Assembly (NCBI GenBank): GCA_017617435.1
Contig: JAFZWF010000008.1
Location: 6,258-70,257 of the forward strand
DNA length: 64,000 nucleotides
Source of the DNA: Bacilli bacterium
Lineage (GTDB): Bacteria; Bacillota_I; Bacilli_A; RF39; UBA660
Direction: 5' to 3'
Numbering within the stretch: position 1 is the stretch's first letter; each line of letters starts with the position of its first letter. The position numbers and the translations under genes are program-made. Positions 48,518 to 48,867 of the stretch are shown one piece after another. The notes under the pieces were generated by a model. The model had not been told where the DNA came from and ran no database searches. It saw nothing but the letters and a program-made list of their open reading frames with translations.

Positions 48518-48547
48518 TTGAATATTAATAAATAATTATTATATAAT
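48518..48547 (+). promoter_or_regulatory. SigA-type promoter for a short plus-strand RNA
   Basis: TTGAAT (48518-48523), 18-nt spacer, TATAAT (48542-48547). Confidence 0.55.
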
Positions 48548-48553
48548 AAATGT

Positions 48554-48626
48554 GTAAGTGTTACCTAGTCGGGTGATGCCTACTTAATGTTTCGGACACC
48601 ACGCCTTACGGCTGGTGTTCTTTTTA
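48554..48626 (+). ncRNA. Candidate ~70-nt antisense sRNA (putative type I antitoxin)
   Basis: Runs from the promoter above to a GC-rich hairpin (48595-48620, two bulges) plus a T-run. Convergent with the small toxin-like ORF and overlapping its stop codon and 3' region. Confidence 0.4.
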
Positions 48627-48692
48627 AATTAATTCTAAAATAACTAGAATTAATAGAATCTCGATGATTAGGGAACTTAAATCCTTTCTCAT
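48624..48692 (-). CDS. Candidate Fst-like type I toxin peptide (22 aa)
   Basis: My translation: MRKDLSSLIIEILLILVILELI, preceded by a GGGAGGTGGAG RBS. Resembles the start of Fst as I recall it (MKDLMSLVIAPIFVGLVLEMI). Follows a long, relatively GC-rich 5' leader. Confidence 0.45.
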   Translation of the reverse strand: MRKDLSSLIIEILLILVILELI

Positions 48693-48867
48693 GACTCCAC
48701 CTCCCTTTAATAAACCCCCTGGTTACTCAGTACAACTGAGCATATTAAAATTAAGTGAAGTAGACACGACCAACATAGGTAACGTATGCATTTTACATCA
48801 AATTATCCCGACACGTTTTGTTTTATGACATATATTTATGTATATAGACAAAGCTTCTAATCATTCG

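Follow-up and report, generated by a model that had tools for sequence, protein, structure and literature searches.

A probable lineage-restricted, multicopy type I toxin-antitoxin-like module in the gap downstream of leuS in an uncultured Bacilli bacterium

We analysed a stretch of 64,000 nucleotides (nt) from a Bacilli bacterium (GCA_017617435.1, contig JAFZWF010000008.1, positions 6,258 to 70,257), referred to here as the window, and within it the gap between leuS and the gene for a thioredoxin-like protein. This gap contains one copy of a repeated module of about 300 bases (the unit has 296 nt), in which the gene for a 22-residue membrane peptide on the minus strand faces a small antisense RNA gene on the plus strand. 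A sequence-only reading had called the gap relatively GC-rich, which the values bear out (38% for the element and 27% for the window), and had proposed an Fst-like type I toxin-antitoxin pair there. The predicted products are an mRNA of ~230 nt that encodes the peptide and, from its own promoter on the opposite strand, an antisense small RNA (sRNA) of ~72 nt. The reading frame, its Shine-Dalgarno (SD) sequence, the pairing that covers this SD and the convergent RNA recur in at least 56 diverged copies, which rules out chance. From this conservation we consider it likely that the locus represents a type I toxin-antitoxin-like module, multicopy and restricted to one lineage, which lies outside every catalogued family. 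We file the module as a probable new family within a known kind, with both toxicity and transcription predicted.

The peptide gene is a 22-codon open reading frame (ORF; 48624-48692, minus strand, stop codon TAA at 48626-48624) for the hydrophobic putative toxin MRKDLSSLIIEILLILVILELI. The SD sequence GGGAGGTGGAG (48695-48705, minus strand) ends 2 nt before the ATG, so that the ORF and the strong ribosome-binding site are both present as first described. Our collected set comprises 56 distinct copies with a mutual identity of 70-80%. An SD-preceded ATG ORF of 20-32 codons is kept in 38 of the 56, mainly in two length classes of 22 codons (15 copies) and 28 codons (12 copies), and the distance from SD to AUG is constant across all intact copies. 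Insertions and deletions within the ORF are multiples of three, with frame and hydrophobicity kept. Variability at codon positions 1, 2 and 3 is 0.31, 0.24 and 0.44, the second position being the most conserved, and 525 of 1455 differing codons are synonymous. Every family peptide starts with a few polar residues (M-x-K/R-D/E...) and continues as an unbroken Ile/Leu/Val helix; the peptide of one intact paralogue, for example, is MTKVSLLYVIIIMLIIVILKLI. Most of them, forming two main groups, end in ...VIL(R/K/E/Q)L(I/V/T)-stop, in agreement with the earlier remark that the charged tail of Fst is missing, and short K-rich tails are found in a few distant members only. The module thus has what is typical of type I systems, a gene for a small hydrophobic peptide (<70 aa) that evolves under purifying selection.

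Some copies have a frameshifted ORF, a lost start codon or a 5' truncation, which looks like pseudogene decay of paralogues. In one genus (g24; copies L045, L050, L056, L064, L046, L053 and L060) the damage, which includes frameshifts, an ATG-to-TTG start and 5' truncation, is found in the toxin part, and the sRNA part is retained together with its promoter. As the damage is confined in this way, toxin genes appear to decay more often than antitoxin genes.

The putative antitoxin is an sRNA of ~72 nt (48554-48625, plus strand) composed of a 5' stem-loop, a linker of ~10 nt and, at its end, a terminator hairpin plus U-run. Its complementarity to the 3' untranslated region (UTR) of the mRNA is complete and runs from the stop codon (48624-48626) through to the distal arm of a helix described below. 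A convergent RNA of ~70 nt that overlaps the toxin stop codon had been predicted from the sequence, as had a promoter and a GC-rich hairpin with a T-run on the plus strand, and our scanner recovers both. The promoter, TTGAAT-18-TATAAT, lies at 48518-48547, with its -10 box 4 nt before (A/G)TGTAAGTG. The hairpin and T-run occupy 48596-48625 (hairpin 48596-48618), and the scanner reports 2 terminator-like sites vs 0.2 in shuffled sequences. As a 74-nt sequence the RNA folds into its two hairpins with -28.6 kcal/mol (z = -4.2), and an sRNA covariance model scores 77.6 bits at this site. Across copies, 93.5% of the cells in the sRNA hairpins are paired and all five terminator pairs show compensatory changes. 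The promoter layout TTGnnA-17-TATAAT-4-ATGTAAGTG is found in 42/56 copies, often with a TG extension. Overall, the promoter, the two covarying hairpins and the U-run are kept in 42-56 of the 56 copies, which amounts on sequence evidence to a dedicated complementary antisense RNA gene with its own promoter and terminator.

Regarding the toxin gene, its promoter reads TTGAAA-16-TATAAT-8-GTTACC in nearly all copies; among the 41 promoters aligned, ~38 keep TTGAAA-16-TATAAT. Since both promoters stand at fixed, conserved positions, conservation itself delimits two putative transcription units. The proposal of a type I pair with a convergent, 3'-overlapping antisense RNA is thus supported by strong comparative evidence: 56 diverged copies, a conserved ORF, two fixed promoters and covariation.

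The minus strand is highly structured. The 256-nt stretch 48545-48800 folds with -79.3 kcal/mol (z = -6.3, 0/200 shuffles as good), and the family consensus fold contains 12 pairs with compensatory changes. One element, which the sequence-only reading had missed along with the multicopy nature of the unit, is a long helix that closes the mRNA end to end: the first ~25 nt of the mRNA pair with the last ~25 nt (48783-48758 : 48585-48560). The 5' arm of this clamp, GUUACCUAUGUUGGUCGUGUCUACUU (48758-48783, minus strand), starts at the conserved mRNA 5' end (GUUACC...) and appears in both the minimum free energy (MFE) fold and the consensus fold. The 3' arm is AAGUAGGCAUCACCCGACUAGGUAAC (48560-48585, minus strand), and the strand opposite it folds as the antisense RNA's 5' stem-loop. 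Pairing in the outer 8 bp of the clamp reaches 97% over 36 copies, vs 27-59% with the partner slid, and a single clamp position shows five pair types (GC 9, UA 8, UG 8, AU 6, CG 1). The 'loop' parts of the arms covary as well, for example CCUAUGUUGG/CCGACUAGG vs CCGAGA/UCUCGG. Cognate arms pair with -35.2 kcal/mol vs -28.0 +/- 0.7 kcal/mol for permuted arms, and 0/10000 permutations are as low. Long-distance pairing of the mRNA ends, of the type found in hok, is thus backed by covariation.

A second helix covers the translation start. The anti-SD ACUUCACUU (48753-48761, minus strand) pairs in the MFE fold with AGGUGGAGU (48704-48696), which comprises the 3' portion of the SD together with the spacer that leads to the AUG. 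The earlier suggestion that ACUUCAC in the leader pairs with GUGGAGU holds, these segments being the core of the 9-bp helix. It is 79% paired in 14 paralogues vs 36-56% when slid, with compensatory changes at 6/9 pairs. The leader itself is shorter than the ~120 nt given before, with ~91 nt from the conserved 5' end (GTTACC, 48783) to the AUG. In the MFE folds of 23 copies, the SD is mostly paired with the stretch just 3' of the clamp 5' arm. The primary toxin transcript is therefore predicted to be stable and poorly translatable.

The geometry of the two RNAs suggests how they might meet. The clamp arms form an inverted repeat, so the 5' end of the sRNA is nearly identical to the 5' arm of the mRNA, and both would compete for one target. 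In the window copy, G-U pairs support the sRNA's own hairpin; the corresponding positions of the mRNA strand are C-A mismatches, which would leave the mRNA 3' arm free for the clamp. The linker is exposed in both molecules: its probability of being unpaired is 0.74 in the mRNA and 0.70 in the sRNA across the family, vs 0.33 and 0.38 overall, and 0.90 and 0.97 in the two RNAs of the window copy. The predicted interaction region is the ~72-nt overlap 48554-48625 (3' UTR and stop codon), with no extra site; at the toxin translation start, the best sRNA duplexes in 33 copies are no better than with shuffled sRNAs. In the proposed mechanism, the RNAs would first contact each other at the ~10-nt linker, which is predicted to be single-stranded in both, and/or at the complementary hairpin loops. 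The sRNA would then displace the near-identical 5' arm of the mRNA, and the resulting sRNA:mRNA duplex of ~70 bp could be cleaved by RNase III, which is encoded in the genome (117.9 bits). The released 5' arm would lengthen the anti-SD helix, as the mean unpaired probability from SD to AUG is 0.28 in the full mRNA and 0.21 in the model with the 3' overlap blocked. A drop in the sRNA level would allow synthesis of the peptide and, through it, membrane damage.

Most toxin promoters carry a further conserved element, TTTTGTCGAA, 4 nt upstream of the -35 box. Its core, TGTCGAA, is the 0A-box core bound by Spo0A in Bacillus and Clostridioides (PMC3485338). It is perfect in 25/41 toxin promoters and has at most one mismatch in 32/41, vs perfect matches in 0/56 sRNA promoters, and in 10/41 copies another box stands ~30 nt further upstream. 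The window copy has a degenerate proximal candidate box, TGTCGGG (48807-48813, minus strand), where paralogues have TGTCGAA, and a perfect distal candidate, TGTCGAA (48864-48870, minus strand), directly after the leuS terminator. The gene spo0A is present in the genome of the window (144.6 bits) and in 11/11 family genomes examined, so that a 0A box at a fixed place in near-consensus sigma-A promoters coincides with the gene for its regulator. TGTCGAA is not over-represented genome-wide (20 observed vs 29 expected from composition), and the argument therefore rests on its fixed position and conservation in the toxin promoters. On these grounds, toxin transcription in most copies is probably tied to Spo0A.

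The same layout of box and promoter is found elsewhere in this genome. It precedes a gene for a STAS-domain (SpoIIAA-like) protein that is followed by a sigma-F-like gene (contig C3 of G000, reverse strand, about 5988-7100 from the far end of the contig), with the TTTTGTCGAA box 4 nt before a TGGAAT -35-like hexamer. There is no SpoIIAB-like kinase gene between the two, which points to a spoIIA-type operon in reduced form; the genome, of ~1 Mb, still keeps spo0A. The layout also precedes divIVA, a sugar-transferase gene and a hairpin RNA, and a reversed box lies upstream of spo0A itself. The hairpin RNA (contig C1 of G000, 5660-5880; locus L112, ~260-480) has the promoter GTCGAA ... TTTTGTCGAT-GTTA-TTGCAA-17-TATAAT, followed by an unrelated stretch of ~150 nt that forms one long hairpin (GATATACTTTGAAATGTCAGATA ... 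TATCTGACATTTGAGAGTATATC). This stretch has no convincing ORF and no Rfam match, and may be another Spo0A-box-linked small RNA.

Copies of the module are numerous within a narrow group of hosts. The genome of the window (0.93 Mb, 71% complete) has 3 copies, the other two lying on contigs C21 and C15 with 71-84% identity to the window unit; two extra anchor matches on contig C9 were rejected as chance since they lie inside a long coding sequence. Of four further species in this genus, three contain 3-5 copies per genome, so that 4/5 species contain the module with the genome of the window counted. In a second genus, the sRNA covariance model finds copies in 15/31 species, with up to 11 per genome. 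A broader covariance model detects the element in 3/214 genera in a sample of the family, and a 400-genome sample of the class gives matches only in the genome of the window and in a fourth genus of the same family. All copies fall in a single family of uncultured gut Bacilli, where they are spread over four genera. When 185,579 species were scanned with a strict pattern, 37 matches were returned, all in uncultured Bacilli represented by metagenome-assembled genomes, with rabbit, rumen, buffalo, mouse and chicken gut as sources; their labels include Erysipelotrichaceae and Tenericutes, and one is Candidatus Caccenecus avistercoris. No module was found in plasmids or phage records (blastn 'distant') or in viral contigs (pattern scan), so a plasmid or phage origin is unsupported.

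The copies occupy intergenic gaps between housekeeping genes. Their neighbours include leuS and the thioredoxin-like gene, pilin-like genes beside rplQ, and ppdK and topA. In a sister species (L011/L082, contig 7 of G004), whose LeuS is 93.5% identical, a module also directly follows leuS, but it encodes a different peptide (MTKVSLLY...) and its DNA is only ~76% identical. Given the similarity of the LeuS proteins, this difference suggests that the module evolves faster than its neighbours or is exchanged between paralogous sites. One tandem pair occurs among the copies, in a third genus (L105; G359:C1, ~66175), where a partial second copy precedes the module with the peptide MRERDVLLIIIIILLLIIYKLI.

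We compared the module with the known type I systems. It resembles bsrG/SR4, txpA/RatA, bsrE/SR5 and yonT/SR6 of Bacillus subtilis in its Gram-positive host, its small hydrophobic peptide, the convergent antisense gene at the 3' side of the toxin gene with the overlap itself as the complementary region, and the availability of RNase III. In bsrG/SR4, the antisense RNA reportedly promotes decay and also tightens SD sequestration (the work of Jahn and Brantl, 2013), and our folding likewise predicts tighter sequestration with the overlap blocked. However, neither the peptide (Pfam, NCBIfam) nor the RNA (Rfam) has sequence similarity to these families, and the peptide of the module is shorter (22 aa) and without a polar tail. 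According to T1TAdb, the antisense RNA overlaps the toxin ORF in the 3'-overlapping Gram-positive families (PMC8594479), whereas the sRNA overlap of the module ends at the stop codon (48624-48626) and leaves the ORF uncovered. Unlike the B. subtilis systems, the module has an mRNA predicted to be closed by pairing of its two ends, with the antisense RNA directed at the 3' strand of that helix, lies outside prophages and has Spo0A boxes at its toxin promoter.

End-to-end closure is known from Gram-negative systems. In hok/sok (plasmid R1) and aapA1/IsoA1 (Helicobacter pylori), the two ends of the full-length toxin mRNA pair with each other and so close it, and the SD of the primary transcript is occluded (PMC8594479, citing Franch et al. 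1997; PMC6733600). The mRNA of the module is predicted to resemble theirs in this respect. In those systems, however, the antisense RNA acts on the 5' region and activation occurs by 3' trimming; here the antisense RNA would target the 3' partner of the lock itself, and removing the mRNA 3' end in silico leaves the SD closed. There is also no leader ORF and no sequence similarity. Like the Ibs/Sib systems of Enterobacteria (18-19 aa), the module has a very short, nearly purely hydrophobic peptide without a polar tail and occupies multiple chromosomal loci, but Sib covers the whole ibs ORF, the hosts of Ibs/Sib are Gram-negative, they have no 5'-3' clamp and the sequences are unrelated. As far as its predicted structure can tell, the module combines two features known separately, the 3'-overlapping antisense RNA of Gram-positive bacteria and the 5'-3' lock of hok and aapA1.

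Lastly, the par locus of pAD1 (Fst, RNA I / RNA II) was the system named in the sequence-only reading. Both have convergent promoters, an antitoxin RNA of ~65-75 nt that does not overlap the ORF, an intramolecular stem that sequesters the SD, a sequestered extreme 5' end, and a peptide with Lys/Asp-type N-terminal charges followed by a hydrophobic helix. Convergent promoters, a sequestered SD and a sequestered extreme 5' end are indeed par features (PMC7472228), and the resemblance to the quoted N-terminal fragment of Fst is real for the window peptide, at 9/20 identical residues and 19.2 bits, above its own shuffles. It does not extend beyond this copy and its closest relatives, as most paralogue peptides match the fragment no better than shuffled peptides. 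The (P/D/S/T)XXXG motif in the transmembrane helix is essential for Fst toxicity (PMC7472228). PXXXG is absent here: the window peptide has neither P nor G, and among 23 listed peptides G occurs in none and P in only one, with no P and G in this arrangement. The Pfam Fst toxin model does not match the window peptide, and searches of 16 family peptides against Fst and other toxin models in Pfam and NCBIfam (E<=10) gave only noise. Similarly, Rfam (both strands, E<=10) places no family inside 48518-48830, the par/Fst antitoxin included. The bidirectional terminator shared by the par RNAs was not found, as the 48596-48618 hairpin has its U-run on the plus strand only and the covarying 3' arm, ~35 nt past the hairpin on the mRNA strand, implies that the mRNA must read through it. 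The DRa/DRb-type direct repeats are likewise missing; the repeats here are inverted and would form the intramolecular 5'-3' helix, so that the 5' end is sequestered by the mRNA 3' end rather than by a local upstream helix. Together with the lack of a charged tail and of sRNA complementarity to the translation start beyond that of shuffles, these differences make it very unlikely that the module is a true divergent member of the Fst/par family. Judged by its sequence, it shares only general type I traits with Fst/par; of the layouts first proposed as models, txpA/RatA and bsrG/SR4 fit better than par.

Two readings dispense with a toxin altogether. The peptide could be a harmless small membrane protein, such as a regulatory subunit or a stress peptide, tuned by a cis-antisense RNA. 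Toxicity is after all a prediction, and Gram-positive bacteria have many small membrane proteins without toxin function (review PMC10730256). The copies, moreover, are chromosomal with housekeeping genes as neighbours, and collections of plasmids, phages and viruses contain none. Yet up to 11 diverged copies in a genome of ~1 Mb, pseudogenes included, are unlike a housekeeping subunit. Presence is also patchy, at 15/31 species of one genus and 3/214 genera in the family search. A double translation lock and an antisense gene at every copy are hallmarks of toxic products, and we regard the harmless peptide as unlikely. The unit might also be a mobile or selfish structured repeat, similar to a miniature inverted-repeat transposable element (MITE) with terminal inverted repeats of ~25 bp, or a non-coding RNA, with an incidental ORF. 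The repeats at 48783-48758 and 48585-48560, the dispersed multiple copies and the location of part of the ORF within a conserved hairpin fit such an element. However, recent transposition gives near-identity, whereas identity between copies of the same genome is no higher than 70-84%; the inverted repeats do not include the conserved promoters and 0A boxes, and they covary to keep RNA pairs, G-U included; and there is no Rfam match. The ORF has an SD, an AUG, a conserved frame and a codon-position bias. For these reasons (copy divergence, promoters outside the repeats, RNA covariation and coding signal) the MITE reading was rejected, and we give the repeat reading hardly any credence.

The type I toxin-antitoxin-like module thus remains the reading that we prefer, and several observations weigh against it. 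The last nine codons of the peptide form a conserved RNA hairpin, so part of the apparent protein conservation could be an RNA constraint. The SD is sequestered in every modelled state of the mRNA, with the 3' overlap blocked or deleted and with the 5' arm deleted; since it stays shut in all folding models, folding by itself offers no route to activation. On the mRNA strand, the hairpin that follows the stop codon lacks a U-run, and the window shows no terminator between the module and the thioredoxin-like gene. The evidence for Spo0A control consists of a 7-bp motif and its context. In the window copy, moreover, the toxin promoter is a remnant (48790-48801, minus strand) without the 16-nt spacer, in which the -35-like TTGATG (48801-48796) abuts the -10-like TAAAAT (48795-48790); in the promoter alignment the window copy scores only 7/12. 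A candidate promoter for the thioredoxin-like gene (start 48437), TTGCAT-17-TATAAT (48475-48503, minus strand), lies in an AT-rich stretch downstream of the module, so this gene need not rely on read-through from the toxin mRNA.

The promoter remnant raises a question that concerns the window copy only, namely whether it is decaying, the spacer deletion having silenced the toxin gene so that the antisense RNA alone is expressed and possibly cross-protects against paralogous toxin mRNAs. The proximal 0A box is degenerate too, the sRNA promoter is intact, nearly all aligned paralogues keep the full spacing and other copies have decayed in other ways. Against decay, this copy still has an undamaged ORF, its SD and anti-SD, the two arms of the clamp and the sRNA gene; a weaker alternative promoter, ATGTCA-18-GATAAT (48831-48802, minus strand), was found by the scanner 20 nt upstream; and read-through from leuS is possible. 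In addition, the sRNA is only 70-84% identical to the targets in the paralogues. We take decay of this copy to be a serious possibility, although we lean somewhat against it. The toxin gene of the window copy may be weakly expressed, and the copy may now be mainly an sRNA donor.

A more specific version of the toxin-antitoxin reading is a Spo0A-gated system with a new logic: an mRNA clamped from 5' to 3' end, and an antitoxin that mimics the mRNA 5' end and competes for the 3' strand of the clamp, which would open the mRNA to RNase III and to decay from the 5' end, with the ribosome-binding site sealed again by the released arm. We put this forward tentatively and think it rather improbable in its entirety.

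The family is a well-defined example of its kind, with 56 copies and clear RNA covariation in hosts that have no catalogued member. The many natural compensatory variants make it a convenient case for an antisense RNA invading a locked mRNA. For annotation, a seemingly 'empty' GC-rich gap downstream of leuS is predicted to contain two genes. The hosts are uncultured, genome-reduced (~1 Mb) gut and rumen Bacilli, in which the module fills up to ~0.4% of the genome. If the Spo0A boxes are functional, a type I toxin would here be tied directly to a regulator of development, which is rare. If the Spo0A-gated reading is true, the master regulator of sporulation and stationary phase would switch toxin transcription, and self-poisoning peptides would be linked to the spore-or-die decision in these genome-reduced gut Bacilli.

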